Below, piece by piece: positions 9,813 to 60,710 of a stretch of DNA of 64,000 bases. Below the pieces are notes generated by a model. That model saw only the letters and a list, made by a program, of their open reading frames with translations, made no database searches and had not been told where the DNA came from. The DNA comes from Burkholderiales bacterium (GTDB lineage Bacteria > Pseudomonadota > Gammaproteobacteria > Burkholderiales > SG8-41): assembly GCA_030683105.1 (NCBI GenBank), contig JAUXMZ010000027.1:12316-76315 (forward strand), read 5' to 3'. Both the position numbers and the translations under genes were made by a program. Position 1 is the stretch's first letter; every line of letters starts with the position of its first letter.

Positions 9813-9953
9813 GTGATTAAGTAATTAAGTAATTAAGTGATTAAGTGATTGGCCAATCTAACGTCGCGCTCTGAGCGAATTAATCACTGAATCACTGAAT
9901 CACTGAATCACTCAATCACTCAATCACTCAATCACCGTATCACCGGGTCACTC
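9813..9953. repeat. Inverted short-period array, 8-nt units (5 x GTGATTAA-type, 29-nt core, 9 x AATCACTG-type)
   Basis: Read directly. Left arm 9813-9852, core 9853-9881, right arm 9882-9953. The arms are reverse complements. Confidence 0.9.
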
Positions 9954-9974
9954 GACCCTCCAGGAGTTAAAAAA

Positions 9975-11198
9975 ATGGCAGGACCACTATCCCATATCCG
10001 CGTTCTTGATCTGTCACGAGTGCTGGCTGCGCCATGGGCCGGCCAGAACCTCGCCGACCTCGGCGCCGAGGTCATTAAGGTCGAGCGTCCCAAGCACGGT
10101 GATGATTCGCGCGCTTTCGGCCCGCCCTGGCTTAAGAGCCCGGACGGGAAGGACACCGGGGAATCCGCATATTTTGCCGCCGCCAACCGCGGCAAAAAAT
10201 CGATCACGGTCAATATGTCCAAACCGGAAGGGCAGAAAATCATTCTCGATCTTGCCCGGCAGTGCGACGTATTACTCGAGAATTACAAGTTCGGCGATCT
10301 TGCGCGCTACGGCCTGGGCTACGAAGACATCAAAAAAATTAATCCGCGCCTGATCTATTGCTCGGTCACCGGCTTTGGCCAGACCGGACCTTACCGTGAG
10401 CGCCCCGGTTACGATTTCATGATCCAGGGCATGGGCGGGTTGATGAGCATCACCGGAGAGCGTGACGATCTGCCCGGGGGCGGGCCGCAGCGCGTGGGCG
10501 TGCCCATAGTCGATATCATGACCGGCATGTATGCCAGCATCGCGGTGTGTGCGGCGATCGCGCATCGCGCCGAAAGCGGCGTCGGCCAGCATCTCGATCT
10601 TGCGCTGCTGGACACCCAGGTGGCGTTTCTGGCCAACCAGGCGATGAACTATCTTGCCACCGGCGATGTGCCAGGACGGCTGGGCAACGCTCACCCCAAC
10701 ATCGTGCCGTATCAGACATTCAAGACCAGCGATGGCGATATCATCCTCGCCTGCGGCAACGATAATCTGTTTAACAAGTTCTGCGGGCTGGCCGGATGTC
10801 AGGATCTGGCGCAGGACCCGCGCTTCGCGACCAATGGCAATCGCGTCGAGAATCGCGTGGCGCTGACGCCGCTGCTCGAGGCGGTGTTCAGGACACGAAC
10901 CACGCGCGAGTGGGTGGATGCGCTCGAGGCGGCTGGCGTGCCCAACGGCCCGATCAACGACCTCAAGCAGGTATTCGAAGAACCGCAGGTCATTGCGCGC
11001 GGTATGAAAATCGAACTCGATCACCCAACGGCGGGCAAAGTGCCGCTGGTGGCAAGCCCGATGCGATTTTCCGCAACGCCGGTCGATTACCTGAATCCGC
11101 CGCCCACCCTGGGCCAGCATACCGAGGAAACGCTGCGCACCATGCTCAACATGAGCCCGGCCGACATCGAGCGCTTGCGCGAAGGCGGCATCGTCTAG
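9975..11198 (+). CDS. CaiB/BaiF family (class III) CoA-transferase
   Basis: 407 aa. N-terminal RVLDLSRVLAAPWAGQNLADLGAEVIKVE is the family hallmark. Confidence 0.85.
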   Translation: MAGPLSHIRVLDLSRVLAAPWAGQNLADLGAEVIKVERPKHGDDSRAFGPPWLKSPDGKDTGESAYFAAANRGKKSITVNMSKPEGQKIILDLARQCDVLLENYKFGDLARYGLGYEDIKKINPRLIYCSVTGFGQTGPYRERPGYDFMIQGMGGLMSITGERDDLPGGGPQRVGVPIVDIMTGMYASIAVCAAIAHRAESGVGQHLDLALLDTQVAFLANQAMNYLATGDVPGRLGNAHPNIVPYQTFKTSDGDIILACGNDNLFNKFCGLAGCQDLAQDPRFATNGNRVENRVALTPLLEAVFRTRTTREWVDALEAAGVPNGPINDLKQVFEEPQVIARGMKIELDHPTAGKVPLVASPMRFSATPVDYLNPPPTLGQHTEETLRTMLNMSPADIERLREGGIV

Positions 11199-11992
11199 AA
11201 AAACCGCAGCAACATGCTGGTGGCCAGCACAAAAAGAATAACGGCGAATATCCTTTTCAACATTCGTCCCGGCGTGCGGTGGGCGATGCGCGCCCCGATT
11301 GGCGCCATGATGATGCTCGAGAGCACGATAACGGCCAGCGCGGGCAGGTAAACATAGCCGATGCTGTAGTCCGGCAGATGTTCCACCCTAAGACCTGACA
11401 GCACGTAGCCGGCGCCGCCGGCCACGGCCAGAGGCCAGCCTACGGCCGCTGCGGTGCCTATGGCCTCATGTATGCGTATGCCGCGCTTGATGAGAAAGGC
11501 GACGACCAGCGCCGCGCCGCCGGTGGCGGTCAGGCTGGAAATCAGGCCGATGCCCGCCGCGACCAGCGACACGATGCTTGTGCCGGGAAACTCGAGGATG
11601 GGCCCCGGCTTGCGTTCCTTCAGCATCTGCGCGCTCAGGTAGTAGATCAGCACGGTGAATATCACGCTGAGCAGGCGCAGGTCCATAAATCCGGCAAGTA
11701 GTGCCCCGCCAAACGTGCCGATGAATATTCCAGGCGCCACCCTCAGGACGATGCGCCAGTTCACCGCCTGGTGGCGATGGTGACTCAACACGCTCGCCAT
11801 GGAGGTGAAGACGATAGTGGTGATGGCGGTGCCCAGCGCGAGGTGCACCACATGGTCGGGGGCAAACTGCTTGGCGGCGAAAATGAAGGCCAGCACCGGC
11901 ACCATGGCTGCGCCGCCGCCTATGCCCAGCAACCCGGAGAAAAACCCGACGAATCCGCCCAGCAGCAGGTACGCCCACCACCATTCAATCAC
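11195..11992 (-). CDS. TauE/SafE (TSUP) family sulfite/anion exporter
   Basis: 265 aa, ~8 TM segments, duplicated GGG-rich helices (GLLGIGGGAAMVP). Confidence 0.8.
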   Translation of the reverse strand: MIEWWWAYLLLGGFVGFFSGLLGIGGGAAMVPVLAFIFAAKQFAPDHVVHLALGTAITTIVFTSMASVLSHHRHQAVNWRIVLRVAPGIFIGTFGGALLAGFMDLRLLSVIFTVLIYYLSAQMLKERKPGPILEFPGTSIVSLVAAGIGLISSLTATGGAALVVAFLIKRGIRIHEAIGTAAAVGWPLAVAGGAGYVLSGLRVEHLPDYSIGYVYLPALAVIVLSSIIMAPIGARIAHRTPGRMLKRIFAVILFVLATSMLLRFF

Positions 11993-12327: not shown

Positions 12328-12358
12328 GATGACCGGGCCGGACTGCGGCAACCATTGC

Positions 12359-12808: not shown

Positions 12809-12814
12809 AAATCG

Positions 12815-12842: not shown

Positions 12843-12849
12843 CTGACGC

Positions 12850-12879: not shown

Positions 12880-13057
12880 ATTGATCCCCCGCCTGTGCCG
12901 TCAGACTCGTATCTTGAACCTAGGGTTCAAGGTGGTCACCTTTCGAGCCCATCAGGCGCTTCCCTAGGGACGCGCACACCGGCGCTTACTGAATCGGCAA
13001 CCAGACAGATACTATTGGTTCAAAGAGTTTAAAGCCTTAACAAACACCGCAGGGGAA
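12880..13057 (-). ncRNA. ssrS: 6S RNA
   Basis: Lies immediately downstream of zapA, as in E. coli. The minus strand contains CACCUUGAACCCUAGGUUCAAGAUAC (compare E. coli CACCUUGAACCAAGGGUUCAAGGGUUAC). The 5' UCCCCUGCGG and 3' GGCGGGGGA ends can close the rod. Ends are approximate. Confidence 0.75.
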
Positions 13058-13059
13058 AC

Positions 13060-13568: not shown

Positions 13569-13987
13569 GCGCGCACTATAGTTGGAAAAATCCTGTTAAG
13601 TCAACTGCTAACGAGAATTCTTGAATGTGATTTGATAGATTTGAGCGGTCAGTCATATGGCATATCAGTCAAGCCGGTAACACGCCCTCCGGGCTTCAAA
13701 TTATGGTCAAGTTGTAGTGATGCGGGAAATGCCGGGCAACCCCAATCCAGCTCAATGTCTGCGCTGCCAGCGGTGAGCACATAATTAAAATCATTTATAT
13801 TCAATAGAATAGCCATCTCTGGCTTGGCCTAATACGATGGACTGCCGGTGTGGGCCGCATTTGTCCGAAAACGGACAGGATCTGGTGTTTCGGGGCGAAG
13901 ATTCGGGTATTGGGCGCGCGTCAGGTAGAATTCACGATGTTTCAGCGCGTCCTTGAGTCCGAAGTGGGCGCTAACTGAAATGCGGTT

Positions 13988-14175
13988 TCAGGTGCCCGCG
14001 CCAAGTTCTATTGGCCGGGGTAAACGGGAAACAGGTAAGACAGCAGGATTCAGGATTCAGGATTCAGGAATCGGGAATTCCGCAGCTAAGCCTGTGCTGC
14101 CCCCGCAACGGTAAGCGAGCGTGGGCGCGCCATCAAGCCACTGGGTGTTTTCACCCGGGAAGGCGGCGCGTCATG
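13988..14175 (+). promoter_or_regulatory. Cobalamin (B12) riboswitch
   Basis: Conserved blocks GGTGCC...AAACGGGAAACAGGT...GCTGCCCCCGCAACGGTAA...B12 box AGCCACTGG...GGGAAGGC. Candidate P1 is CGCGCC (13996-14001) with GGCGCG (14164-14169). It lies upstream of a TonB-dependent receptor. Confidence 0.8.
14044..14079. repeat. Tandem heptamers (CAGGATT x3, CAGGAAT, CGGGAATT) inside the riboswitch variable region
   Basis: Read directly. The complement AATCCTG is one base short of the AATCACTG unit seen elsewhere. Confidence 0.85.
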
Positions 14176-14334
14176 TTCTCGCGAGCCCGTATACCGGCCT
14201 GAACCGAAAAGTGGTGGAAATGCTGCGGGGAGGCGGCGGTCCCGGTTTCGGTCGGTTCTCGTTCTTCCTTCCTTGGTGTTTCCTCGTTCGATTAATGCAC
14301 ATGCGGTGGGCATGTCTGACCAAAGGAAAACATC

Positions 14335-25455: not shown

Positions 25456-25570
25456 GTGATTCAGTAATTCAGTGATTAAGTGATTAAGTGATTAAGTGAT
25501 TGAGTGATTGAGTAAATCGTGAGGCATCTGCCAGCAGAAATCACTTGGTTACTTAATAACTCAATCACTA
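25456..25570. repeat. Inverted short-period array, 8-nt units (8 left, 19-nt core, 4 right)
   Basis: Left arm GTGATTCA GTAATTCA GTGATTAA x3 GTGATTGA x2 GTAAATCG. Right arm AATCACTT GGTTACTT AATAACTC AATCACTA. The last units overlap the stop of the 25561 gene. Confidence 0.9.
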
Positions 25571-26316: not shown

Positions 26317-26320
26317 AGCT

Positions 26321-26346
26321 GGTGAATGGTAAATGGGGAATGGTAA
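26321..26346. repeat. Heptamer array (GTGAATG GTAAATG GGGAATG GTAA)
   Basis: Read directly in the spacer downstream of the ligase gene. Inverted relative to the array at 27721-27752. Confidence 0.7.
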
Positions 26347-26371
26347 AAACAGCGCTTTGCACACTCCTTCC

Positions 26372-40663: not shown

Positions 40664-40683
40664 TGAATAAAGGGAAAAATACA

Positions 40684-42764: not shown

Positions 42765-42765
42765 T

Positions 42766-43722: not shown

Positions 43723-43733
43723 ACTTATAGTCG

Positions 43734-45254
43734 TCAATCCGCCGTGTCTGTTCTGCCGAGCCATTTGAGCGCGCTGGCTTTGATGGTGTTACGCAATTCG
43801 GGCGCTGCGAGACCAGCTGCGGCAACAGCCAGGCCGAGAATCACGGCCAGCGCGGCAAGAAGTCCGATCGGATGCAGCCCTTCCGGCAGGAGTATGCGTC
43901 CGGCACCCAATACGAAAATGGCTGCTACTGCGGGCGCCATGATGTCGCGCAGATACCATCTGAGTTGCTCGCCTCGCCTCATGTCGGAATGAACCAGGGG
44001 TATCTCAATTATTAAATAAGCGGCATTTAGCGTTATCCATGCGATGGCCGAGCTAATCGCGCCGATCCGAGGCGCAAGATACCATATGGCCGGACCGAGT
44101 ACGGCGATTGCTGCCAGATTGAAAATAAGGAATATTCTCGTCCTGCCGCGTGCCAGCTCCCGGGCATAGGGGACGTTCATGAGGCCATTGAGGGCTGTGC
44201 CGATCGCGAACAGGCTCAATATGGGACCCGCGTGGCTCGCGACATTTTCGTTGCGCGTCCATAACAGCAACACTTCGTGCGAATAGAACGACAGGAACAG
44301 TGCTGCCGGCACCACTGTAGCTGCTACGACTTGGGTGGAAATGTGATAAACCTGCTCGAGGACTGCATGCTTGCCCTCGGCAATCAGCACGGAGAATCTA
44401 GGGTAGACGGCGCTAAAGACCGGTGTTGCGAAAAGATTGAGAGCGCCGGCTACGGTAACCGCGAGGCTAAAATAGCCAAAGGCCTCAAGAGTCAGGAAAT
44501 TAATCAGTATCCACTTGTCGAGTTGAGTAAGCACCAATCCGGAAATGGTAAGGCCGCTCACCCCCGCAGCGAAGCGCCAGACGCGAGAGAGAAGTTCCGG
44601 GCGGAACCTTGGATGCCCACTCGCGGCCGGCAGGCCTGTGCGCAAGGCGGCAACCATTACAATCAGGGCCAGCAATCCTGCCATGATCTGCCAGCTGAAA
44701 AACGCCAGGATGGTGGGCGAAACTAGCCACAACACGAGCAGGGCGCCCAAGCCGTTCGCTGTGGAAAGAAGAATCCTGAGCTTGTTCACGAGTACCTGCT
44801 TTTGCAGTCCCATCAGGCCGCTGAAATACAGGTTGGCCGGCCAGTTCAGCATGATCACAATGACCATCATGTACAGCACTTGACGCAGCGAATCCGGGTC
44901 AATCTGATTCGGGTTCAAGACATGGCGGGCGATCAGGTGCATAAGCAAAGCAAGCACCGCACACACTGCAATGACCACGCCCCAGTAGACGACTTCCATG
45001 GTGCGCACGAGATCGCGCATCTCGGATGCGCCTTGCGGGTCTATGGAAAGGCGGGCCATCTCCCGGTTCAGTGTCTGGGCCAGCCCCAGATCGAAGATCT
45101 GAACACTCGTGATCAGCATTACGTAGAAGCCGATGAGCGCATACGATTCAACGCCGAGAAAATGCAGATAAAACGGGACGAGCGCAATCTGGAGCAGCGC
45201 CGTCCAGCCTTGCCCGATCAGATTGGCGATGACGTTGGTTTTGACGCGGACCAC
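43734..45254 (-). CDS. wzx: O-unit flippase (Wzx, polysaccharide biosynthesis/MOP family)
   Basis: ~506 aa, 12-14 TM segments. GTG 45254 lies 2 nt after the rfbD stop; the ORF-track start at 45332 would overlap rfbD. Confidence 0.75.
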   Translation of the reverse strand: MVRVKTNVIANLIGQGWTALLQIALVPFYLHFLGVESYALIGFYVMLITSVQIFDLGLAQTLNREMARLSIDPQGASEMRDLVRTMEVVYWGVVIAVCAVLALLMHLIARHVLNPNQIDPDSLRQVLYMMVIVIMLNWPANLYFSGLMGLQKQVLVNKLRILLSTANGLGALLVLWLVSPTILAFFSWQIMAGLLALIVMVAALRTGLPAASGHPRFRPELLSRVWRFAAGVSGLTISGLVLTQLDKWILINFLTLEAFGYFSLAVTVAGALNLFATPVFSAVYPRFSVLIAEGKHAVLEQVYHISTQVVAATVVPAALFLSFYSHEVLLLWTRNENVASHAGPILSLFAIGTALNGLMNVPYARELARGRTRIFLIFNLAAIAVLGPAIWYLAPRIGAISSAIAWITLNAAYLIIEIPLVHSDMRRGEQLRWYLRDIMAPAVAAIFVLGAGRILLPEGLHPIGLLAALAVILGLAVAAAGLAAPELRNTIKASALKWLGRTDTAD

Positions 45255-46766: not shown

Positions 46767-46839
46767 CGTTGATCGTGAATCGTGAATCGTTAACCGGGAA
46801 CCTCGTGAGCCGTAAATCGTGAATGGTGAATCGTAAGTC
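46767..46839. repeat. Heptamer array (GTGAATC-type units), one arm flanking four-helix-bundle gene 1
   Basis: GATC GTGAATC GTGAATC GTTAACC ... GTGAGCC GTAAATC GTGAATG GTGAATC GTAAGTC. Confidence 0.85.
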
Positions 46840-46844
46840 ATTTC

Positions 46845-47195
46845 TCATATCTTGACGTTTCTATGCAGCCCGGAGAGTAATTGTCCTACGCGATCAAGGT
46901 GGGTGAATATCTCGTGCTCCAGCGACATATATTCTAACTCTGCTGCGATAAGCATCTGCGTTTCCAATTCGCTGAGAGAGCCCTTGGAGATGCTAATGAA
47001 CTGAGCAAATTCTTTCTTCGACGATCGTGCAGCGCCTTCCGCGAGGGTGCTCGGCATCGATATTGCGGCACGCCGCATCTGGGCCGTCAGTCCATATAGC
47101 GCCTCTTTGGAAAACGCTTGTGTGACTAGGCAGGTCATCTTCACAAGGCGCATGGCTTGCTGCCATGCATCTAGATTTTGATGTGGCCTTGCCAT
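46845..47195 (-). CDS. Four-helix-bundle protein (23S rRNA intervening-sequence protein family), copy 1
   Basis: Start taken at MARPHQNLDAWQQAM. LAEGAAR...KGSLSELETQ...LLSGLHRNV are family hallmarks. 116 aa. Confidence 0.85.
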   Translation of the reverse strand: MARPHQNLDAWQQAMRLVKMTCLVTQAFSKEALYGLTAQMRRAAISMPSTLAEGAARSSKKEFAQFISISKGSLSELETQMLIAAELEYMSLEHEIFTHLDRVGQLLSGLHRNVKI

Positions 47196-47229
47196 TAACG
47201 ATTCACGAATTACGATTAACGAATCACGG
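47196..47229. repeat. Heptamer array, inverted partner of 46767-46839
   Basis: The plus strand TAACGATTCACGAATTACGATTAACGAATCACGG is the complement of GTGATTC GTTAATC GTAATTC GTGAATC GTTA. It abuts the copy-1 ATG and contains the rfbA stop. Confidence 0.85.
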
Positions 47230-48096
47230 TTCTTGAAGAATATTGCGCAGGTAATGCGCATAGGGATTGTTGTTGCTCATCGAGGCGGCGATTGTTTCCA
47301 GCTCGCCGGCGGTGATATATCCCATGCGGTAGGCGATTTCCTCGGGGCAGGCGATTTTCAGGCCCTGGCGTTTTTCGATGGTCTCGATGAATAGCGATGC
47401 TTCGAGCAAGGAGGCATGAGTGCCAGTATCGAGCCAGGCGACGCCGCGGCCCAGCAGGACGACATTCAGCTCGCCGCGGCGCAGATACTCATTGCTGATG
47501 TCGGTGATCTCGAGTTCGCCGCGCGCGGAAGGTTTCAGGGCGCGGGCGATGTCGATGACTTTGTTGTCATAGACGAAGAATCCAGTGACCGCAAATTTTG
47601 ATTTGGGGTGCTTGGGTTTCTCCTCGATCGAGATCACTTTCCGGTTCTTGTCGAACTCGACGACGCCGGAGCGCTCCGGGTCCTGCACCTGATAGGCGAA
47701 GATCGTCGCACCTGTCGTCTTTTCGGTTGCGGCCTGCATGTCGGTGGTCAGGTCATGGCCGTAAAAGATGTTGTCGCCAAGGATCAGTGTGCACGGCCCA
47801 TCTCCGATAAAATCGGCGCCGATTGTAAAGGCTTGTGGCAAGCCTTTGGGCTCCTGCTGCACCGCGTAGGACAGATTAAGGCCCCAGCGGCGCCCGTCGC
47901 CGAGAAGTTGTTCGAAGCGCGGCGTATCCTGCGGCGTCGAGATCAGCAGGATATCGCGGATGCCAGCGAGCATCAAAGTCGACAGCGGATAGTAAATCAT
48001 CGGCTTGTCGTAGACTGGCAGCAGCTGCTTGGAGACGACCTGGGTCGCGGGGTAGAGGCGGGTGCCGGAGCCGCCGGCGAGGATGATGCCTTTCAT
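47224..48096 (-). CDS. rfbA: Glucose-1-phosphate thymidylyltransferase
   Basis: [18 protein letters not shown]...[16 protein letters not shown]. Confidence 0.92.
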
Positions 48097-48104: not shown

Positions 48105-48141
48105 GTGATTAAGTGATTGGGTGATGGAGTGATGGGGTGGT
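48105..48141. repeat. 8-nt array (GTGATTAA GTGATTGG GTGATGGA GTGATGGG GTGGT), one arm flanking four-helix-bundle gene 2
   Basis: Read directly. Confidence 0.85.
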
Positions 48142-48492
48142 TTACTGGGTTACGTTTCTGTGAAGGCCGGAAAGCAATCGCGATACCTCCTCCACTAACT
48201 GGAAAACCCCGTGCTTCTGGTCAAGATAACCCAGTTCCACTGAAATCAATAGTTGTGTTTCCAATTCGCTTAATGAACCTTTGGCGATACTCAGGAATTG
48301 TGCGAACTTTTTCCGTCCCGTTCTGGCCGCGCCTTCAGCGAGGTTGCTGGGAATGGAAATCGCCGCGCGTTGCATCTGAGCGGTGAGGCCGTATATTTCT
48401 TCACGAGGAAACGTTCGTGTGGTTTCATAAATGCTTTTGACCAATACCATCGCAGCCTTCCACGCTTCAAGATTGTAATGTGGTCTGGTCAC
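48142..48492 (-). CDS. Four-helix-bundle protein (23S rRNA intervening-sequence protein family), copy 2
   Basis: GTG start. 71/116 residues identical to copy 1 by hand alignment, with the same hallmarks. Confidence 0.85.
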   Translation of the reverse strand: MTRPHYNLEAWKAAMVLVKSIYETTRTFPREEIYGLTAQMQRAAISIPSNLAEGAARTGRKKFAQFLSIAKGSLSELETQLLISVELGYLDQKHGVFQLVEEVSRLLSGLHRNVTQ

Positions 48493-48504
48493 GCGGCGTT
48501 TTCC

Positions 48505-48530
48505 TAATCACTCAATCACTTAATTACTTT
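48505..48530. repeat. 8-nt array (AATCACTC AATCACTT AATTACTT), inverted partner of 48105-48141
   Basis: Read directly. Confidence 0.85.
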
Positions 48531-50739: not shown

Positions 50740-51986
50740 TCAGATCGCGTTTCGGATATACGCTGCTGCTGTACGCTCTGCTGCCGCTAGTATTGCTACG
50801 CCTGGTGTGGCGCGCGCGGCGCCAGCCTGCTTACCTCAGGTACATCCCCGAACGCTTTGGTTTTTACCGGCAACAGGCGACGCGGCCGCTGGTCTGGCTG
50901 CATGCGGTGTCGGTCGGGGAGACCCGGGCGGTGGCGCCGCTGATCACGGCGCTGCAGGATCGATATCCCGGGCACCAGATTTTGCTGACCCACATGACCC
51001 CGACGGGTCGCGAGACGGGAGAGGCGATATTCGGCACCGATGTCTTGCGGTGTTATTTGCCGTACGACTATCCGGGGGCGGTTGCGCGCTTTCTTGAATA
51101 CTTTAAACCCAAGGCCGGGGTGCTGATGGAAACCGAGATCTGGGCCAACCTGATCCACGGTTGCAGCCAGCGGCAGATCCCGCTGTATCTCGTCAATGCC
51201 CGTTTATCGGAGAAGTCGTTCGCCCGCTACCGGCGGTTCGCCGTGCTGGCACGCAAGAGCCTGGGGGAACTGAGTGCGGTTGCAGCCCAAACTCGCGATG
51301 ATGCCGGGCGCTTGTCGGAGTTGGGTGCCGCGAACGTGACCGTTGCCGGCAACATCAAATTCGACATCGTGCCGCCAGCCGCGCAACTGGAACTGGGCCG
51401 CGTCTGGCGCACAGGCTACGGCGAGGGCCGGCCGGTATTGCTCGCCGCCAGCACGCGTGATGGGGAGGAGGACATGCTGCTGGACGCGCTGGAACAGCTT
51501 GCCGTACCGTCACTGCTGACCGTGGTCGTGCCCCGTCATCCGCAGCGCTTCGATCAGGTCGCGGCATTGATGGCGCGTCGCGGCATCTGTTTTCAGCGCC
51601 GCAGCAGCGAAGCGGCCATTGCGGCGGAAACCCGGGTCCTGCTGGGCGACAGCATGGGCGAGATGTTCGCCTACTATGCGGCGTGCGATGTCGCTTTCAT
51701 CGGTGGCAGCCTGCTGCCATACGGCGGACAGAATCTGATCGAAGCGTGCGCGGCGGGCAAGCCGGTGCTGGTCGGGCCGCACACCTATAATTTTTCGGAA
51801 GCAACCGAGCTGGCGATCGCGGCGGGTGCCGCAATTCGCGTCAGGGACATCGGTGAACTCACGCAAGTTGTGCGGCGCTTGCTGATGGACCGGGCTGAGG
51901 TGACGCGCATGGCGGGTGCCGCGCTCGCGTTCAGCAGGGCACATCAGGGGGCCACACAGCGCGTATTGGAATTGCTGCGGTTCTAA
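50736..51986 (+). CDS. waaA: 3-deoxy-D-manno-octulosonic acid (Kdo) transferase
   Basis: 416 aa with WLHAVSVGE and GGSLLPYGGQNLIEA motifs. Confidence 0.9.
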   Translation: MIRSRFGYTLLLYALLPLVLLRLVWRARRQPAYLRYIPERFGFYRQQATRPLVWLHAVSVGETRAVAPLITALQDRYPGHQILLTHMTPTGRETGEAIFGTDVLRCYLPYDYPGAVARFLEYFKPKAGVLMETEIWANLIHGCSQRQIPLYLVNARLSEKSFARYRRFAVLARKSLGELSAVAAQTRDDAGRLSELGAANVTVAGNIKFDIVPPAAQLELGRVWRTGYGEGRPVLLAASTRDGEEDMLLDALEQLAVPSLLTVVVPRHPQRFDQVAALMARRGICFQRRSSEAAIAAETRVLLGDSMGEMFAYYAACDVAFIGGSLLPYGGQNLIEACAAGKPVLVGPHTYNFSEATELAIAAGAAIRVRDIGELTQVVRRLLMDRAEVTRMAGAALAFSRAHQGATQRVLELLRF

Positions 51987-51997
51987 CGAGTAGATCG

Positions 51998-52100
51998 GTG
52001 ATTGAGTAATTAAGTAATTGAGTGATTGAGTGATTTTGGCAGTCACAACAGCAGCCTAGGCTGCTGTTAATCACCCAGTCACCCAATCACTTAATCACTG
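51998..52100. repeat. Inverted short-period array, 8-nt units (5 left, 31-nt core, 4 right) between convergent waaA and tolC
   Basis: GTGATTGA GTAATTAA GTAATTGA GTGATTGA GTGATTTT ... AATCACCC AGTCACCC AATCACTT AATCACTG. The core holds a perfect 22-nt palindrome, AACAGCAGCCTAGGCTGCTGTT (52047-52068). Confidence 0.9.
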
Positions 52101-52109
52101 CTTTACGCC

Positions 52110-53450
52110 TTACTTGACCGCCAGCCACGCATTGACCTGGGTGAGGTCATCTTCCGCGAGTCGTCCCACAGCGGCCTTGAGTTTCAGCATGGACAGGATG
52201 TAGTTGTAGGTCGCCTGCGCCAGATCACGCCGGGTCGAGAACAGCTGCTGTTGCGCATTGAGCACGTCGACCTGGGTTCTGACGCCGACTTCCAGCCCCA
52301 GGCGGGTGGAGGCGAGACTGCTTTGGCTGGACACCAGCGCTGCTTGCAGCGCTTTGATCTGCGCGGCACCATTCGCCACGCCCAAAAATGCCTGGCGTGT
52401 GCCGAGTTCGGCCGTGCGCCGGGCATTATCCAGATCCTGGCGCGCCTTGTCCTCGTTGGCCAGCGCCTCGCGCACACGGGAACTGGTCAAGCCACCCTGG
52501 TAAATCGGCACGGACAGTTGCAGTCCGATCACGCGGGACGTGGTGTCCGTGCCGGCACCCCCCTGCAAACCGGAGCCGGAACCTGACTCGCTGTACGAGG
52601 CCACGGCATCGAGCGTGGGCAGATGACCGCCGCGATTGCGTTTGACCTCCTGGGTTGCGAAGGTCAATCCAAACTGGCTGAGTTGCACCTGCAGATTGGC
52701 GCGGGCCGCATCCTGCACCCAGTCATCCATGCGGTTGGGCTCGGGCAGCATCAGCGAAAACTGCTTGCCCAGAAGTGAGAGCACCGGCGCCGGTTTGCCT
52801 ATGAGTTGCTCCAGGGCGCGGTACTTGATTTCCAGATCGTTGTTTGCGGCAATTTCCTGCGATACCGTCAGATCGTAGCGCGCCTGGGCATCGTGCTGAT
52901 CGGTGATGGTGGCGGTGCCCACCTCGAAGTTGCGCTTGGCCTGGGCCAGTTGTTCGGCTATGGCTGTTTTTTGTGCGCCGGCGAAGGCCACGTTGTCCTG
53001 CGCCAGCAGTATGTCGAAGTAAGCCTGCGCTGCCCGGACGATCAAATCCTGGGCTACCAGCGCAAGCTGCACGTCGGTCTGCGCCACCTGGGTTTTAGCC
53101 TGCTCGTACTGCGTATAGTTTTGTGCCCGAAACAGCGGCTGGGTCAATGACAGCGTTACGGCGTTGGAGTTGAACTGGCCCACCGAACCGGGTATAGCCG
53201 GGTTTCGAAAATTGATTTCGCGGTCGTTATGCTGGGTAGACGCCGATAGGTTGAGTTGGGGCAATAGTCCGGCGCGCCCCTGAGGCAGTTTTTCCTGACC
53301 TGCGGTCCATGCCGCACGCGCTGAGGCATACACTGCGTCCGAGCTTCGCGCTTCTTTGTAAATATCAATTAAATCAGCGGCATAGGAATTTACCGCGGGT
53401 GTCACGGCAAGCGCCAACGCAAGCGTAAGGGGGGTGAGGATGCGCATCAT
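52110..53450 (-). CDS. tolC: TolC-family outer-membrane efflux protein
   Basis: Start taken at MMRILTPLTLALALAVTPAVNSYA (signal peptide), followed by a two-repeat OEP architecture. The longer ORF-track start would translate the upstream repeat array. Confidence 0.85.
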   Translation of the reverse strand: MMRILTPLTLALALAVTPAVNSYAADLIDIYKEARSSDAVYASARAAWTAGQEKLPQGRAGLLPQLNLSASTQHNDREINFRNPAIPGSVGQFNSNAVTLSLTQPLFRAQNYTQYEQAKTQVAQTDVQLALVAQDLIVRAAQAYFDILLAQDNVAFAGAQKTAIAEQLAQAKRNFEVGTATITDQHDAQARYDLTVSQEIAANNDLEIKYRALEQLIGKPAPVLSLLGKQFSLMLPEPNRMDDWVQDAARANLQVQLSQFGLTFATQEVKRNRGGHLPTLDAVASYSESGSGSGLQGGAGTDTTSRVIGLQLSVPIYQGGLTSSRVREALANEDKARQDLDNARRTAELGTRQAFLGVANGAAQIKALQAALVSSQSSLASTRLGLEVGVRTQVDVLNAQQQLFSTRRDLAQATYNYILSMLKLKAAVGRLAEDDLTQVNAWLAVK

Positions 53451-53455
53451 GCTCA

Positions 53456-53538
53456 AGTGATGGAGTGATGGAGTGATTGAGTGATCAGGCATTAGATGGG
53501 TCTCGCTAAGCATTATTTACTAAATCACTAAATCACTA
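53456..53538. repeat. Inverted short-period array, 8-nt units (4 left, 28-nt core, ~3 right)
   Basis: AGTGATGG x2 AGTGATTG AGTGAT ... TATTTACT A AATCACTA AATCACTA. The last unit contains the pcm stop codon. Confidence 0.85.
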
Positions 53539-54204
53539 GAATACAAACCGTTCCGGCTGCGGCGCGTTTTTGAGCGACGTAATGCAGGTCTCAAACAGGA
53601 CGACCGAATTATAGACCCCGGCCGAGACACAGGTGATCAACCGCGCTTCCATGACCGGCGACTCTCCAACCACCGCGAGCAGCCGCCCGCCTGGCTTGAG
53701 GTTTTTCTGAAACGCTTCCGGCAACACCGGCACCGATCCGGTCAGCACGATCACATCATAGGGCCCGTGTTTGTCCCAGCCACGGGCCGCGTCGCCGGTT
53801 TCGAGCGTGACGTTGATAATGCCGTGTGCCGCGAGCTTGGCGGCAGCCGACTGAGTGAACTCGGAAATGATGTCTACACTGTAAACGTGGTTTCCCAGGC
53901 TGGCGAGCAGCGCCGTCATATAGCCGCTGCCGGTGCCGACTTCGAGTATGCGGTCGGAACTCTCGAGGCCAAGTTCCTGCAGCATGCGCGCTTCGATCTT
54001 GGGCGGGAGCATCTTTTCGCCATGGCCCAGCGGAATTTCCATGTCGGAGAAAGCCAGCGCGCGGTACTGCTCGGGCACGTAATCTTCGCGATGTACGCGG
54101 AGCAGCAGGTCCAGCACCTGCTGGTCGAGAACATCCCATGGCCTGATTTGCTGTTCGACCATATTGAAGCGTGCGCGCTCAAAGTCCAATTGGGGGGTGG
54201 TCAT
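53536..54204 (-). CDS. pcm: Protein-L-isoaspartate O-methyltransferase family protein
   Basis: ILEVGTGSGYMTALLA motif I. 222 aa with PCMT-like spacing. Confidence 0.75.
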   Translation of the reverse strand: MTTPQLDFERARFNMVEQQIRPWDVLDQQVLDLLLRVHREDYVPEQYRALAFSDMEIPLGHGEKMLPPKIEARMLQELGLESSDRILEVGTGSGYMTALLASLGNHVYSVDIISEFTQSAAAKLAAHGIINVTLETGDAARGWDKHGPYDVIVLTGSVPVLPEAFQKNLKPGGRLLAVVGESPVMEARLITCVSAGVYNSVVLFETCITSLKNAPQPERFVF

Positions 54205-54329
54205 ATGAGTCGGTTCCGGAAAGTAATAATTGGGTTAAGCGGCCGGGGGTGAGGGAGGTGCGGATATCTACTCCGGGCCTCGGCGCGTTACTGCTTGCAA
54301 TTATCCCACAATTGGATTAGTTTTTGCGT

Positions 54330-56381
<2,052 letters not shown>

Positions 56382-56499
56382 TCTATCGTGGGGGTTTCGA
56401 TGCGGGGGGCTCGGTTACGTCTTCTTACAAACCGCGTACCCCGCTTTACACGGCGCCCTGTAGAATGCCTGCTTTACATGGCATTTTCCTAATTCTGAT

Positions 56500-58041
56500 A
56501 TGACCCGACGTCGTTACTATGTTGCCGGCCTCTTGCTTCTGCTTGCCGCGGGGGGTGCCGCGGGCTATGCGTTCTGGGGGTCGGCCAAACCGGAAGCTGC
56601 CTATCGTTTTGCCAAGATCGAAAGCGGCGGCATCACGGCGGCGGTATCCGCAACCGGAACCCTCAATCCCGTAGTGTCGGTGCAAGTCGGCTCCCAGGTC
56701 TCGGGGCAGTTGAAAGAAATACTCGTCGACTACAACTCACAGGTCAAAAAAGGCCAGCTCATCGCGCGCATCGACCCGGAGTCGTTTGCATTGCGCGTGA
56801 GTCAGGCGATGGCGGATGTGGAGGCGGCTCGCGCTACCGTCCTCACACAGCGGGCCAATATCGCCGCGCTTCAGGCTGAAGTTTCGCGCACCAAAGCGGG
56901 TCTGGCGGACGCCGAGCGTGAATACGAGCGCAACAAAATGTTGTATGAGAAGAACTTCGTGTCCGCCGCGGCGCGCGACAAATCGCAGACCGCGTTCGAA
57001 ATTGCGCGAGAACAGGTCAATACCTCCCGGGCGCAGGTGGGCGTGGGCGAGGCACAGATACGCAACGGCGAAGCGCTGGTAAAACAGCGCGAATCCCAGT
57101 TGGCCCAGGCAAAAGTAGATCTTGACCGCACCCTGATACGCGCGCCGGTGAACGGCATCGTGGTCAAGAAATCGGTAGAGCCGGGACAGACCGTTGCAGC
57201 GAGCTTGCAGTCACCCGAACTTTTCGTGATCGCGCAGGACTTGCGCGAAATGCAAGTCGAGGCCTCGATCGACGAGGCTGAGATCGGCCGCGTGCAAGTC
57301 GGCCAAAGCGCAAGCTTTACTGTTGATTCCTTCCCCGGGCGCACTTTCCGCGGCACGGTGTCGCAGGTACGCAAGGCGGCCCAGGTGGTGCAGAATGTCG
57401 TTACCTACATTGCCGTTATTGGCGCCTCCAATGCCGATCTCAGCCTGTTTCCGGGAATGACCGCCAATGTGCGCATCGTGGTCGACACCCGCGAAAACGT
57501 GCTTAAAATTCCCAATGCCGCGCTGCGTTACCGCCCGCCGGGCGTGGCGGACACGCGCCAGGCGGCCGAGCCGCCGGCCAAGGGTGGGGGCGGTCAGCAG
57601 GCGGGGCAGGCGCGCGAGCGGTTGACCAAGGAGCTTAACCTCAGCGCTGAACAGCAGGCGAAAGTAGAGACGATATTTAACGAGACGCGAGACAAGATCC
57701 GGGCCATCGCCACCGAGGACCAGAACGAGCGCCGCCGCCTGTCCGAGAAGCTGCGTGCCGATTCGCGTACGCGCATCGCCGAGGTCCTCGATCCCGAGCA
57801 GCGCTCACGCTACGCGGAAATGAACGCTTCGCGCGCAGCGGGGGGCGTGTCCGGCGGCAGGGTATGGATCCAGGACCAGGACAAGCCAAAAATGGTCGCC
57901 GTGCGCACAGGGCTGACCGACGGCTCTTACACCGAGCTGGTTTCAGGCGGGCTGGCCGCGGGTGCGCAGGTGATTATCGGCAGCGCCGACAGCGGCAAGA
58001 AGCAAGGTCAACCGGCTCCCGGCCCGCGCTTTGGATTCTAA
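56500..58041 (+). CDS. Periplasmic adaptor (HlyD/MacA family) with a ~108-aa insertion
   Basis: Lipoyl, hairpin and beta-barrel order typical of MacA (LIARIDP...IRAPVNGIVV). The extra segment (residues ~346-453) is rich in LxxEQ repeats. Confidence 0.8.
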   Translation: MTRRRYYVAGLLLLLAAGGAAGYAFWGSAKPEAAYRFAKIESGGITAAVSATGTLNPVVSVQVGSQVSGQLKEILVDYNSQVKKGQLIARIDPESFALRVSQAMADVEAARATVLTQRANIAALQAEVSRTKAGLADAEREYERNKMLYEKNFVSAAARDKSQTAFEIAREQVNTSRAQVGVGEAQIRNGEALVKQRESQLAQAKVDLDRTLIRAPVNGIVVKKSVEPGQTVAASLQSPELFVIAQDLREMQVEASIDEAEIGRVQVGQSASFTVDSFPGRTFRGTVSQVRKAAQVVQNVVTYIAVIGASNADLSLFPGMTANVRIVVDTRENVLKIPNAALRYRPPGVADTRQAAEPPAKGGGGQQAGQARERLTKELNLSAEQQAKVETIFNETRDKIRAIATEDQNERRRLSEKLRADSRTRIAEVLDPEQRSRYAEMNASRAAGGVSGGRVWIQDQDKPKMVAVRTGLTDGSYTELVSGGLAAGAQVIIGSADSGKKQGQPAPGPRFGF

Positions 58042-58046
58042 GGGCG

Positions 58047-58241
58047 GTGATTAGGTGATTGAGTGATTGAGTGATTAAAACGCATCTTGAAATCCGCTTT
58101 CACCAACACCCTCCACGCCGTCACGGAGCGAGGGTGTATGTTTGAGACGCGCTCTAAGCAATTCGCAAGAAACTACTGGCTTGGCAGTTGCCTAATCACT
58201 GAATCACTGAATCACTGAATCACTGAATCACTGAATCACTC
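58047..58241. repeat. Inverted short-period array, 8-nt units (4 left, 115-nt core, 6 right)
   Basis: GTGATTAG GTGATTGA x2 GTGATTAA ... AATCACTG x5 AATCACTC, ending 4 nt before the ATG of the ATPase gene. Confidence 0.9.
58083..58124 (-). pseudogene. Possible decayed 5' fragment of a four-helix-bundle gene
   Basis: The minus strand CGCTCC GTG ACG GCG TGG AGG GTG TTG GTG AAA aligns to copy 2, CGCCGC GTG ACC [21 nt] GCG TGG AAG [9 nt] GTA TTG GTC AAA. 23 of 27 aligned coding nt are identical after two in-frame gaps. Confidence 0.35.
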
Positions 58242-58245
58242 AAAC

Positions 58246-58995
58246 ATGGCCGAACCCCTGATCGTCACCCGCAGCCTCGCCAAGGTGTACCGCATGGAAA
58301 GTTACACCGTGACAGCGCTGCAGGGAGTGTCGGTCGAAATCGGGGCGGGAGAATTCGTGGCGGTGATGGGTCCGTCCGGTTCAGGCAAATCAACCTTCAT
58401 GAATCTGCTGGGCTGCCTCGATACGCCTTCGAGCGGCGAATATTGTCTGGCCGGCGAGAAAGCTTCCGAGCTTTCGGGCGACGCGCTCGCGGCTGTACGC
58501 AATCGCAGAATCGGCTTCGTGTTCCAGAATTTCAATCTGCTGCCCCGCACGTCAGCGCTGGAGAACGTCGAACTGCCGCTGCTCTACGCGCACATCTCGG
58601 CTCAGGAGCGGCGCAGCCGGGCGCTTGCCAAGCTTGCCGATGTCGGACTGGCTGAGCGCGCAGACCACCACCCCGCACAACTCTCCGGCGGGCAGCAACA
58701 GCGGGTGGCGATTGCGCGCGCGCTGGTCAACAATCCGGTGTTGATCCTGGCCGACGAGCCGACCGGCGCACTTGATTCCCGGACCAGTTGCGAAGTCATG
58801 GGCCTGCTGCAGCAATTGAACCGTCAGGGCATGACCGTGGTGCTGGTGACTCACGAACACGACATCGCGGCATTTGCCTCGCGCGTGGTGAACTTCCGAG
58901 ATGGCCGCGTGGTGGATGATCAGCTGGTCGCCGATCCGGTCGATGCGCAGCGGATGCTGCGCGAGCTGGATGAGAGCGCGGAGGTGGCAGTATGA
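58246..58995 (+). CDS. MacB/LolD-type ABC transporter ATP-binding protein
   Basis: [24 protein letters not shown] and [11 protein letters not shown] motifs. Confidence 0.88.
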
Positions 58996-59017
58996 GCTAT
59001 CCGGCGAGGGGACGAGC

Positions 59018-59221
59018 GGAGCGCGGAGCAGGGGCCCCATTCATGGGGATGCGACCGTGCAGCGAGTCAAGGGCGCGCTCAATTTCGTCCCCATGCGCGC
59101 CTGCGGGGTCAGATCCCAGAGGGTCCCTCTTCCGCCCTCCGGCGCGCCCCTTTAGGGGATCGACGGCAAAGGCGCGCTGGAGCGTGGAGCAGGGGCCCGC
59201 TTGCGGGATGCGACCGCGCAG
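59018..59221. repeat. Two direct copies of a ~44-nt element in the ATPase|permease spacer
   Basis: GGAGCGCGGAGCAGGGGCCCCATTCATGGGGATGCGACCGTGCAG (59018-59062) versus GGAGCGTGGAGCAGGGGCCCGCTTGCGGGATGCGACCGCGCAG (59179-59221). Confidence 0.8.
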
Positions 59222-59383
59222 GCGTGCACAGGCCCGTGGATTTGTATCAGCGCGCCTTGGCTCGCTCCCGGGTCGCACCTACCGGGCAAGCCGGCAGGCA
59301 CTGCTCCGCCGTCCGCGGGCCATTGCTGCCTGCCGCCGACACCAAAGTGCACGATATACCAGCGGCCGATCGGAGGCGGCGGC

Positions 59384-60616
59384 ATGACCTGGCTCGCCAG
59401 CATGCGCATCGCCTTGCGGGCGCTGCGTGTGAACAAGCTGCGCAGCATGCTGACCATGCTCGGCATCATCATCGGTGTGGGCGCCGTGATCACCATGATC
59501 GCCGTGGGCGCCGGCGCGCAGGCCCAGATCGAAGAGCAGATCAAGAGCCTGGGGTCCAACCTCATCATCGTGCTCCCGGGTTCGGTCACCTCGGGCGGCG
59601 TGCGCATGGGCGCGGGCTCGCGTGCTTCTCTGACGGAAGACGACGGTTACGCCTTGCAGCGCGAGATTGCGGAGGTGCAGGCAGCGGCGCCCAACCTGCG
59701 CGGCACCGGTCAGGTGGTGGCCGGGAGTGCCAACTGGTCCACCGTGTTTTACGGCGTGACACCGGAGTACTTCGAGGCACGCAATTGGGTGATCGCCAGC
59801 GGCAAGGGATTCGATGCTGCTGATTTAAGCGGATCGGGAAAGGTGGTGCTGCTCGGCGAGACCGTGGCCCGCAATCTGTTCGGCGACACCGATCCCGTAG
59901 GACAGACCGTGCGCGTGCGCAAGGTGCCGATGCAGGTCATTGGCACGCTCGAGCGCAAAGGGCAGAGCATGATGGGCCAGGACCAGGATGACGTCATCCT
60001 GATGCCCATCTCCACCGCCCGCAACCGCGTGCTGGGCGGCAACACCGCGAAACAGCGCGCAGTGGGCTCAATTTCGGTCAAGATACGCGAGGGCGCCAAC
60101 ATGGCCGAAACGGAGAGTGAGATCAGGCAACTGCTGCGTCAGCGCCACCGGCTGCAGTTTGGCCAGGAGGATGACTTCAGCCTGCGCAACTTGTCGGAGA
60201 TTCTGGGCGCGCGCGAGGAGTCGAGCCGCATCATGACGCTGCTGCTGGCTGCGGTGGCTTCAGTCTCGCTGCTGGTGGGCGGCATCGGCATCATGAACAT
60301 CATGCTGGTTTCAGTTACCGAGCGCACGCGCGAGATCGGCCTCAGGATGGCGGTGGGCGCGCGCGGGCGGGACATCCTTTCCCAGTTCCTGGTGGAAGCG
60401 GTGACGCTGGCGCTCATCGGCGGCCTGTGCGGCATCCTGCTGGGTGTAGCGGGCTCGTATGCGATCGGACACTTTGCCGGTTGGCGCATCCTGATCAATA
60501 TCCATGCCGTCGTGCTTGCGGTCGGCTTTGCTGCCGTCATCGGCGTCTTCTTCGGTTTTTATCCGGCACGCAAGGCTTCGCGCCTGCTGCCGATAGAAGC
60601 GTTGCGTTATGAGTGA
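59384..60616 (+). CDS. MacB-type ABC transporter permease (FtsX fold with periplasmic domain)
   Basis: Start taken at MTWLASMRIALRALRVNKLRSMLTMLGIIIGV. The C-terminal FtsX region contains ERTREIGLRMAVGA. Confidence 0.88.
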   Translation: MTWLASMRIALRALRVNKLRSMLTMLGIIIGVGAVITMIAVGAGAQAQIEEQIKSLGSNLIIVLPGSVTSGGVRMGAGSRASLTEDDGYALQREIAEVQAAAPNLRGTGQVVAGSANWSTVFYGVTPEYFEARNWVIASGKGFDAADLSGSGKVVLLGETVARNLFGDTDPVGQTVRVRKVPMQVIGTLERKGQSMMGQDQDDVILMPISTARNRVLGGNTAKQRAVGSISVKIREGANMAETESEIRQLLRQRHRLQFGQEDDFSLRNLSEILGAREESSRIMTLLLAAVASVSLLVGGIGIMNIMLVSVTERTREIGLRMAVGARGRDILSQFLVEAVTLALIGGLCGILLGVAGSYAIGHFAGWRILINIHAVVLAVGFAAVIGVFFGFYPARKASRLLPIEALRYE

Positions 60617-60710
60617 TTCGGTGATTAAGTAATTAAGTGATTGAGTGAACCACCGCCCGCGGCGCGAGGGTTTGGGTCAATCACCCAATCACTGAATCAC
60701 TAAATCACTG
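60613..60710. repeat. Inverted short-period array, 8-nt units (5 left, 26-nt core, 4 right)
   Basis: GTGATTCG GTGATTAA GTAATTAA GTGATTGA GTGAACCA ... AATCACCC AATCACTG AATCACTA AATCACTG. The first unit contains the permease stop codon. Confidence 0.9.

Follow-up and report, generated by a model that had tools for sequence, protein, structure and literature searches.

Closest described systems

Long simple sequence repeats (LSSRs; Mrazek 2007) are built of 5-11-nt units, among which heptamers are commonest, and are abundant in Burkholderia, cyanobacteria and Xanthomonas; as far as the account in PMC4679880 goes, the over-representation of heptamers was ascribed to polymerase slippage. Here, a 64,000-nt stretch of contig JAUXMZ010000027.1 from a Burkholderiales bacterium (assembly GCA_030683105.1), called the window below, has been analysed. 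Seven of its intergenic loci consist of two inverted arrays of one 8-nt unit on either side of a core, and one of the seven encloses a gene of the four-helix-bundle (4HB) family known from the intervening sequences (IVSs) of 23S rRNA. The window arrays are a new octamer family within the known but functionally unexplained LSSR class, and they are not a categorically new element. The main lead reaches beyond the window: inverted simple sequence repeat (SSR) arms are a regular packaging of 4HB genes across phyla.

The nearest published architecture comes from Xanthomonas, in which Rehm et al. 2015 described GGGAATC heptamer arrays, including about 70 cases of two nearby convergent arrays (PMC4692102). 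Table S2A of that study pairs a plus-strand array, usually about 4 units long, with a minus-strand array 21-67 nt further on. These arrays prefer spacers flanked by aligned open reading frames (ORFs), are depleted between divergent ORFs and are mostly transcribed; pairs are found at groES-groEL, atpA-atpG, atpD-atpC, gltB-gltD and holC-pepA, 3-30 nt from the genes, and formation of a G-quadruplex (G4) by GGGAATC has been shown in vitro (PMC4692102).

Short tandemly repeated repetitive (STRR) sequences can form hairpins between the cyanobacterial genes hupS and hupL, and these were suggested to stabilise the transcript or to couple translation; no function of STRR sequences is known (PMC2670836). 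TAACTGA heptamers of Beggiatoaceae, Cyanobacteria and Bacteroidetes are intergenic and lie a few nucleotides upstream of start codons (PMC4679880). The 428-nt IVS of Coxiella carries an S23p ORF in the loop of a 28-bp stem that is cut by RNase III (PMC4990558). The (ATCTTTC)n array of Haemophilus influenzae hmw1A lies in a 5'-UTR hairpin cut by RNase III, and both the hairpin and RNase III are needed for changes in unit number (PMC12721329).

Inverted octamer arrays in the window

Direct reading of the sequence gives (GTGATTNN)n, a core and (NNAATCAC)m at all seven loci, and the GTGATT arm comes first and the AATCAC arm second in 7/7 of them. Six loci are solo arrays; the seventh carries the 4HB gene hb2 as cargo within the rfb operon, which also contains a second cargo-carrying element with heptamer arms around another 4HB gene, hb1. 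The elements, their cargo genes and their flanking genes are as follows.

9813-9953: solo array in which 5 GTGATTNN units and 8-9 NNAATCAC units flank a 29-nt core; its neighbours, both on the plus strand, are genes for an enoyl-CoA hydratase (stop 9806) and a CoA-transferase (start 9975).
25456-25570: solo array with 7-8 units before its core and 4 degenerate units after it, in the spacer of two minus-strand GT2 glycosyltransferase genes; the upstream stop codon lies within the last unit, and the next start is 7 nt off.
46772-47232, minus strand: second cargo-carrying element, of heptamers, with (CGTGAAT)n at 46772-46834, hb1 and (ATTCACG)m at 47196-47232, between rfbA and rfbC; its unit family is not the one used by the hb2 arms of this operon.
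46845-47195, minus strand: hb1, a 4HB gene 61% identical to hb2 (TIGR02436, 96 bits).
48105-48529, minus strand: cargo-carrying element with 5 GTGATTNN-type units at 48105-48144, hb2 and 3 AATCAC-type units at 48506-48529, between rfbB (stop 48536) and rfbA (start 48096).
48142-48492, minus strand: hb2, a 4HB gene of 116 aa (TIGR02436, 114 bits; PF05635).
51998-52100: solo array of 5/4 units with a G+C-rich hairpin within its core, between the convergent genes waaA (plus strand, stop 51986) and a TolC-like OEP gene (minus strand, stop 52110).
53457-53538: solo array of 4/3 units, GTGATGGA variants, between a PCMT methyltransferase gene (stop 53536) and the OEP gene (start about 53447), both on the minus strand.
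58047-58241: solo array of 4/6 units with a 115-nt core, between a membrane-fusion-protein gene (stop 58041) and an ABC ATPase gene (start 58246, no Shine-Dalgarno (SD) sequence), both on the plus strand.
60613-60710: solo array of 4-5/4 units, between a MacB-type permease gene, whose stop overlaps the first unit, and uppP/bacA (start 60740), both on the plus strand.

A chain scan for GTGATT or AATCAC, with at most one mismatch and a spacing of exactly 8 nt, returned 5/8(+1), 7(+1)/4, 5/3 and 5/4 units for the loci at 9813, 25456, 48105 and 51998, and 4/3, 4/6 and 4(+1)/4 units for those at 53457, 58047 and 60613. An earlier, sequence-only reading of the window had placed six solo loci and the arms around the 4HB gene at these positions and had taken all of them for one family of common design. 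Direct reading confirms the positions, and the chain scan agrees with its unit counts and unites all seven loci. GTRATTRA occurs 37 times in the window, against 4.4 +/- 2.2 times in dinucleotide-preserving shuffles (shuffle maximum 11), and Tandem Repeats Finder (TRF) calls all arms as period-8 arrays of 3-8 copies. Arrays of 5-11-nt units number 0.31 per kb in the window, compared with 0.04 per kb across 50 kb from E. coli K-12. The solo loci are 83 to 195 nt long. Pfam annotation of the flanking genes places all seven loci between genes, six in co-directional spacers and one (51998-52100) in a convergent spacer, as had been described before. The arms fill these spacers, beginning -4 to 11 nt from the upstream stop and ending 4-29 nt before the next start; in the convergent spacer the array reaches up to the facing stop.

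The arrays are not artefacts of assembly, a possibility that the sequence-only reading had raised, because an independent Logan assembly of a separate run (SRR13727541) carries the 58047 locus with an identical left arm, core and right-arm ends. Two short Logan contigs of this run, L001 and L210, terminate within the right array of 58047, as is expected of short-read graphs. Short-read contigs stop inside arrays, and most contigs with 4HB genes are only 0.5-2.5 kb long, so that metagenome assemblies are fragmented. The practical meaning is that short-read assemblies break at such arrays.

The cores have little in common. Those of 9813 and 58047 share CGCGCTCTRAGC(G)AATT at 15 of 17 positions (p about 0.002, uncorrected for 30 comparisons), and this match fails multiple-testing correction. 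A third core (53457), for which the same motif had been proposed, gives no significant match. The common descent that had been drawn from the motif is weakly founded, and orthologous loci have unrelated cores. A stretch of the 9813 core also matches the DNA that codes for GSLSELE in hb1 at 14 of 16 positions, and this 16-nt match likewise fails multiple-testing correction.

Adjacent heptamer arrays, (GGTAAAT)4 and (CCTATTT)3, occupy 26320-26394 between co-directional genes. They were considered as a further hairpin and ruled out because the arms are non-complementary (fold z-score -0.9).

Comparison with known repeat classes

The window arrays have the properties of LSSRs: they consist of head-to-tail 5-11-nt units beyond chance expectation (TRF; 37 vs 4.4), and their unit number varies among close relatives. 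The sequence-only reading did not recognise the architecture. It falls within the LSSR class, and inverted 7-nt SSR array pairs have been published for Xanthomonas (PMC4692102). As in the Xanthomonas GGGAATC pairs, two convergent arrays lie tens of nucleotides apart near gene ends with the G-rich arm first, and their copy number is variable. The unit is 8 nt long and free of G-tracts here, whereas it is a 7-nt G-tract unit there, so that the sequence requirement of a G4 is absent from the window arrays. Xanthomonas belongs to the Gammaproteobacteria, whereas the window derives from a Burkholderiales-like betaproteobacterium. Because GTGATTNN lacks G-tracts, the G4 cannot be the general explanation for the inverted-array architecture, and the denominator shared with Xanthomonas must be the hairpin or the polarity. 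The same architecture with a unit incapable of G4 formation thus removes the only mechanism proposed for arrays of the Xanthomonas type and points to hairpin and polarity.

The analogy with STRR sequences drawn in the sequence-only reading is fair. Both are dispersed intergenic tandem arrays of a short unit, and some STRR sequences form hairpins between co-transcribed genes. STRR units, CCCCAGT and others, are 7 nt long, most have been described as single arrays, and the name is limited to cyanobacteria, whereas the window unit has 8 nt, and the window's nearest relatives belong to Burkholderiales or betaproteobacterial metagenome-assembled genomes.

The hb2 element resembles a 23S IVS with an S23p/4HB ORF, as known from Coxiella and Leptospira, in that it is 425 nt long and has complementary ends with the ORF in the loop. 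Complementary termini that pair into a predicted stem around a PF05635 ORF are present in both 48105-48529 and 46772-47232. The rRNA IVSs lie in helix 25 or 45 of 23S rRNA and are excised by RNase III, whereas the window elements lie in rfb mRNA spacers. Rfam finds no rRNA in the window, and the conserved 23S motif is absent from all 209 fetched loci. The heptamer SSR of hmw1A, which is transcribed as one side of a long hairpin and changes its number of units, is comparable; unlike the window family, it is a single locus with a unique G-rich right arm and serves the phase variation of one adhesin.

Repetitive extragenic palindromic (REP) sequences and bacterial interspersed mosaic elements (BIMEs) are dispersed, extragenic hairpins in transcribed spacers and stabilise mRNA 3' ends. 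The window arrays are also dispersed, extragenic and predicted to form hairpins between co-directional or convergent genes, as REPs do. However, each REP consists of one unique, imperfectly palindromic sequence of 20-40 nt and is mobilised by RAYT transposases, whereas the repeated unit of the window is an 8-mer and the cores are unrelated. CRISPRs have 23-50-nt repeats with unique spacers of about the same length, whereas the window arrays are contiguous 8-mers without spacers. Miniature inverted-repeat transposable elements are near-identical copies of fixed length with terminal inverted repeats and target-site duplications, whereas the window loci measure 83-195 nt, their cores are unrelated save for one 17-nt motif and no target-site duplications were seen. 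The operators of omega, a ribbon-helix-helix (RHH) protein, are WATCACW arrays in inc18 plasmid promoters; the window arrays have period 8 and are chromosomal and intercistronic, and only AATCAC is common to both. TAACTGA heptamers are nearly all direct repeats, unlike the window arrays, with one indirect case among 170 sets (PMC4679880). Rfam at its gathering level reports only a cobalamin riboswitch, 6S RNA and a TPP riboswitch in the whole window, and at E <= 1 only the TPP riboswitch in 51900-60800, leaving the arrays unmatched. The statement that they belong to none of REP/BIME, ERIC or CRISPR stands, with no Rfam match even at E <= 1. A scan for intrinsic terminators was empty at the four loci from 51 to 61 kb; the arms are followed by start codons and not by T-runs.

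Four-helix-bundle genes packaged in inverted arrays

Both hb1 and hb2 belong to the TIGR02436/PF05635 four-helix-bundle (23S-IVS protein) family and lie in sense orientation within the rfbB-rfbA-rfbC operon. A set of 80 metagenome loci encoding relatives 46-70% identical to hb2 was fetched (fetched loci of any kind are given L numbers below); 72 of them have both flanks. A 5-11-nt array within 220 nt of the 4HB gene is present on at least one flank in 68/72 and on both flanks in 49/72. Demonstrably complementary arm units are found in 38/72, and most inverted-repeat z-scores are between 5 and 40. On the same contigs, array density is 2.35 per kb near the 4HB gene and 0.41 per kb elsewhere. The units vary from locus to locus, but the upstream arm carries GTGA in 30/65 loci and TCAC in 4, and the downstream arm mirrors it. 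By a crude ORF caller, the 4HB gene is co-directional with its upstream neighbour in 53/67 cases and with its downstream neighbour in 52/60. The median gaps beside the 4HB genes, 58 and 45 nt, are essentially the arms.

The same arrangement is seen outside metagenomes. On finished plasmids of cultured cyanobacteria, the 4HB gene lies in the cas6-cas4 gap, in the cas10-cmr3 gap or within other operons. In Anabaena sp. 90 pANA02 (L208) and a Picosynechococcus PCC 7003 plasmid (L209), 4HB genes with SSR arms are inserted at cas6/cas4 and cas10/cmr3, and complementary arms are clear in both. In Nostoc punctiforme the downstream arm is cut to about two units, and on a Nostoc PCC 7120 plasmid the flanking arrays are non-complementary. 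In viral contigs, both relatives found (2/2) have the 4HB gene within arrays. In Xanthomonas campestris ATCC 33913, the 4HB gene XCC0516 (PDB 2GSC) has (GGGAATC)4 at 622956-622983 (table S2A, PMC4692102); the array overlaps the annotated start, 6 nt after bccP (XCC0517), and no partner array is listed.

These observations strongly support inverted SSR arms as a regular packaging of 4HB genes in different phyla. The association ties together SSR arrays, of which STRR sequences have been known since 1990, the 4HB IVS proteins and the rRNA IVSs. 4HB IVS proteins have thousands of homologues and one crystal structure. No paper connecting 4HB/S23p genes with heptamer or SSR arms was found in open-access text, which is an incomplete collection, and the cross-phylum association was not found described there. 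The authors of the Xanthomonas study did not remark on a link with 4HB genes (PMC4692102). Genes for 23S_rRNA_IVP have been reported earlier as associates of cas loci (PMC3936711). Such 23S_rRNA_IVP/4HB genes inside cas operons may simply be insertions, and not carriers of cas-associated functions.

Arms and gene as one module

Comparison of related loci shows that the arms and the promoter-less 4HB gene behave and transfer as one discrete module, occasionally mobile and often old. L155 and L166 are 90% identical across exactly the arms and the gene, whereas the host genes, at 75.5% identity, are found on opposite flanks of the cassette. In L125/L128 and in L135/L137/L139, homology is confined to the cassette. 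No transposase is associated with the 4HB cassette.

Relatives of hb2 with 71-88% identity all lie at the rfbB-rfbA site, and their GTGATT arms have 3, 5, 3 or 4 units upstream and 4-8 downstream. Among them, L202, L203, L205 and L212 have hb2 orthologues at the rfb site of the window with the same arms in other unit counts. Of two more distant loci, L089 has at the rfbB-rfbA site a gene-less, near-perfect hairpin of the same GTGATT unit, and L105 has a single arm there. L205 and L222 lack any element between rfbA and rfbC, which adjoin. The rfbA gene has no SD sequence wherever its start is next to an AATCAC arm (48096 in the window, L202, L203, L205, L212 and L089), and L105, without this arm, has GAGG.

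The rfb spacer also gathers small inserts (L202, L203). At 4285-4710 of L202, a further G+C-rich palindromic insert interrupts the hb1 orthologue, whose heptamer arms are kept. At 2240-3005 of L203, just upstream of the hb2 orthologue, there are a HicAB pair and an N-terminal fragment of a 4HB gene, the latter with a heptamer array of its own.

Distribution and evolution of the solo arrays

A scan for three consecutive GTGATTN units, with one genome per species, returned at least 120 stretches. The matches listed come from Bacteroidota, Planctomycetota, Acidobacteriota, Betaproteobacteria, Thermodesulfobacteriota, Nitrospirales, Chloroflexota, the candidate phyla radiation (CPR), Cyanobium and others. 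At least 28 further GTGATT pairs have the polarity of the window, and among the matches listed no pair is reversed except between neighbouring elements. By crude ORF calls, co-directional spacers contain 13, convergent spacers 11 and divergent spacers 2 of 26 GTGATT pairs from other genomes, among the matches listed, with background frequencies of 58/19/23%. Such a preference for co-directional or convergent over divergent spacers, seen also in the window (6/1), is shared with the Xanthomonas type.

No 4HB gene was detected by tblastn in the 120 array-pattern loci listed, and the idea that a 4HB gene stands beside every GTGATT array was rejected. Solo hairpins therefore far outnumber gene-carrying ones. 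The possibility that solo cores are decayed 4HB genes was also rejected: in a six-frame search of 28 solo cores for 4HB remnants (hmmsearch --max), the best score was 1.1 bits and shuffles reached 3.6 bits, so that nothing rises above the shuffles, and there is a single 16-nt DNA match. A tblastn search of the window with 4HB proteins gave the two intact genes as its sole clear matches. A weak 4HB-like match was noted at 35043-35189 (E 0.14).

On the contigs with GTGATT matches there are also numerous further families of 7- and 8-nt units, frequently in complementary pairs, such as GTCGTTG/AACGACT, GCAGTAA/CTGCTTA, CAAGTTA/CTTGTAA and GGATGAG/TCATCCT. Partner arms always come from one unit family, even where a genome has several. 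The first arm contains more G than C in 49 vs 6 of the 4HB cassettes, in 13 vs 4 solo pairs of other families and in 41 vs 4 cases of a further data set, and this rule holds on either strand.

Arms outlast cores during evolution. The orthologue of the 9813 site in L069 has 5/10 units and that of the 60613 site in L050 has 4/4 units; both keep the arms and have an unrelated core. L055 has an array pair where the window has an empty spacer. In syntenic loci the flanking genes are only 69-80% identical, and the GTGATT core is retained in both arms. On a shorter timescale the unit number changes: L222, L223 and L224 are separated by only 2-7 substitutions over 4.4 kb, and one arm of a solo hairpin has 4, 7 and 3 AATCACCC units in them, respectively. 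A second array in these strains differs in steps of 2 heptamers. Differences between near-identical strains indicate a slippage-type hypermutability, and the strain variation in unit number that the sequence-only reading had suggested looking for (4, 7 and 3 units in L222/L223/L224) is thus present.

Folding of the arrays and a proposed role

The long hairpins foreseen in the sequence-only reading are predicted for most loci. Five of the six short loci have RNA fold z-scores of -4.3 (9813; minimum free energy (MFE) -37.6 kcal/mol), -5.7 (25456; -5.65 to two decimals), -6.4 (51998), -5.9 (58047; MFE -72.9 kcal/mol) and -5.6 (60613), and their predicted stems consist of 6-7-bp blocks parted by 1-nt mismatches. 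In the hb1 and hb2 elements the arms pair around 350-nt ORFs in the MFE fold of the whole element.

We propose, with about even chances, that the arrays are transcribed intercistronic hairpins resembling rRNA IVS stems or RNase III sites. The arrays would be transcribed with the operon, and the two arms would pair into a stem of 30-70 bp with one or two mismatches per 8 nt. Such a stem would work in the manner of rRNA IVS stems, of the intercistronic RNase III sites of T7 or of REP elements, perhaps serving processing or 3' protection, and its base would unite the upstream stop and downstream start codons. An insertion of 80-430 nt, with or without a 4HB gene in the loop, would thereby be tolerated in a tightly coupled operon. 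The lack of an SD sequence in rfbA beside an AATCAC arm is in line with coupling preserved by the stem. The unit number would drift through replication slippage. Selection that keeps the G-first order may act against either of two things: a C-rich, G-poor arm that is exposed until its partner is made and would resemble a Rho-loading site, or GUG and SD-like motifs immediately ahead of a start codon. 

The support for an RNA-level role is mixed, and several results weigh against it. The antisense RNA fold is more stable than the sense fold in 7/7 window elements (for example, -61.3 vs -37.6 kcal/mol at 9813), because A.C mismatches of the sense strand turn into G.U pairs in the antisense strand. 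This preference is opposite to the trend in 67 metagenome 4HB cassettes, in which the sense arm pairing is more stable in 43 and the antisense in 22 (p=0.019). Solo GTGATT pairs show no sense-strand folding advantage (5 vs 7). The 53457 locus folds weakly (z -2.1), and the spacer at 26320-26394 has arrays without a hairpin (z -0.9). Among the matches listed, many arrays elsewhere have no detectable partner, and the orientation statistics of both GTGATT pairs and 4HB loci rest on a crude ORF caller. Unit variants are homogenised within each arm, and positions 7-8 of the unit are complementary within a locus in 30/68 cases, when 31.4 are expected from complementarity between unrelated loci (p=0.72). 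Without co-variation of the arms at these positions, pairing rests on the conserved 6-nt core alone. The conserved hexamer could then be kept for a sequence-specific reason and not for the stem, such as recognition of GUGAU/AUCAC by a protein or by the 16S 3' tail, and complementarity limited to the hexamer leaves room for a purely DNA-level origin. Of the register-flexible hairpin put forward in the sequence-only reading, the ability of the sequence to form it is upheld, whereas selection for the hairpin is not shown by arms that lack co-variation. Together, these results bring the RNA-hairpin reading to about even odds.

A broader reading that joins the solo arrays with the 4HB cassettes is offered tentatively, and we consider it possible but doubtful as a whole. 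The arrays would be a transposase-less SSR hairpin module able to carry promoter-less 4HB cargo in its loop and to reside inside operons or rRNA helices. Removal or insulation would take place at the RNA level, as with rRNA IVSs, and the module would spread or swap cargo via its arms. The gene-less arrays would be the same element without cargo.

Alternative explanations

The solo arrays might be empty or landing sites of a transposase-less cassette of SSR arm, 4HB gene and SSR arm, whose arms would provide portable homology, so that filled and gene-less alleles interconvert by recombination of arms that share a unit family. The rfb site, which is filled in the window, L202, L203, L205 and L212 and holds an empty hairpin of the same unit in L089, speaks for such a cassette, and the cassette is a discrete module (L155/L166, L125/L128, L135/L137/L139). 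Moreover, the window solo family and the hb2 arms use one unit, the decaying hb1 copy in L202 retains its arms, and the 9813 core matches the GSLSELE-coding part of hb1 at 14 of 16 positions. However, this 16-nt match does not survive multiple-testing correction, none of the 120 listed GTGATT-pattern loci has a 4HB gene, none of the 28 solo cores has a 4HB remnant, and no recombination event was observed. Because hb2 relatives down to 71% identity all stay at one rfb site, movement of the cassette is rare. We therefore judge this explanation unlikely, if still worth keeping in mind. A less likely one makes the arrays functionless by-products of slippage, possibly with inverted duplication, that are tolerated in non-coding spacers. 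Mrazek 2007 chose slippage for the heptamer excess, as far as PMC4679880 relates it. The variation of unit number between near-identical strains, the homogenisation within arms without co-variation between them and the missing sense-strand bias of solo loci would all agree with it. Nevertheless, the GTGATT core is kept in both arms despite flanking-gene identities of 69-80%, the unit and its polarity recur in at least 7 phyla, partner arms are always of one unit family under a strong polarity rule, and there is a depletion of divergent spacers. Slippage by itself would account for none of these points, and we rate this explanation as quite improbable.

The stem could also be incidental, and the arrays could be candidate binding sites of a sequence-specific protein. 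Candidates for the binder would be an RHH protein, by analogy with omega of pSM19035 and its WATCACW heptads or with MetJ and its 8-bp boxes; the 4HB protein itself, a pentamer; or, acting on RNA, a ribosomal protein or the 3' tail of 16S rRNA. Such a binder would explain why the 6-nt core is conserved while positions 7-8 are free and do not co-vary. GGUGAU is complementary to the 16S 3' tail, and the absence of an SD sequence in rfbA beside the AATCAC arm, with GAGG in L105 without the arm, suits the same idea, as does the excess of GTGA over TCAC in upstream 4HB arms (30/65 vs 4). MacGregor proposed a post-transcriptional regulator that binds TAACTGA repeats, and AATCAC is the core of the omega heptad as far as PMC9499535 describes it. 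On the other hand, each of the many unrelated unit families in a genome would need its own binder, the period is 8 and not 7 as in omega arrays, the arrays lie in transcribed spacers and not in promoters, with divergent spacers depleted, and array loci usually have no 4HB gene nearby. These difficulties make protein binding as the primary function very unlikely. The least probable explanation, to which we give practically no weight, regards the arrays either as G4 or i-motif elements, which have been put forward for the heptamers of Xanthomonas and Nostoc, or as intrinsic terminators. It could appeal to the Xanthomonas-like architecture with its G4 in vitro (PMC4692102) and to the one convergent locus. 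It is already contradicted by the array sequence itself: GTGATTNN has no G-tracts and cannot form a G4, no T-run follows any stem, the terminator scan was empty at four loci in 51-61 kb, and 6/7 loci lie within co-directional gene pairs.

Other features of the window

A cobalamin riboswitch (13973-14216) contains a heptamer array in its variable part, at 14044-14078, where (CAGGATT)x4 passes into GGGAATT; this array resembles the GGGAATC unit of Xanthomonas. The G+C content is 0.49-0.54 at about 32000-36000 and 40000-44000 and about 0.60 elsewhere, and these two regions may have been acquired. 6S RNA (12882-13058, minus strand, 77 bits) and the TPP riboswitch (54328-54428, plus strand, 66.6 bits) are ordinary and unrelated to the arrays.

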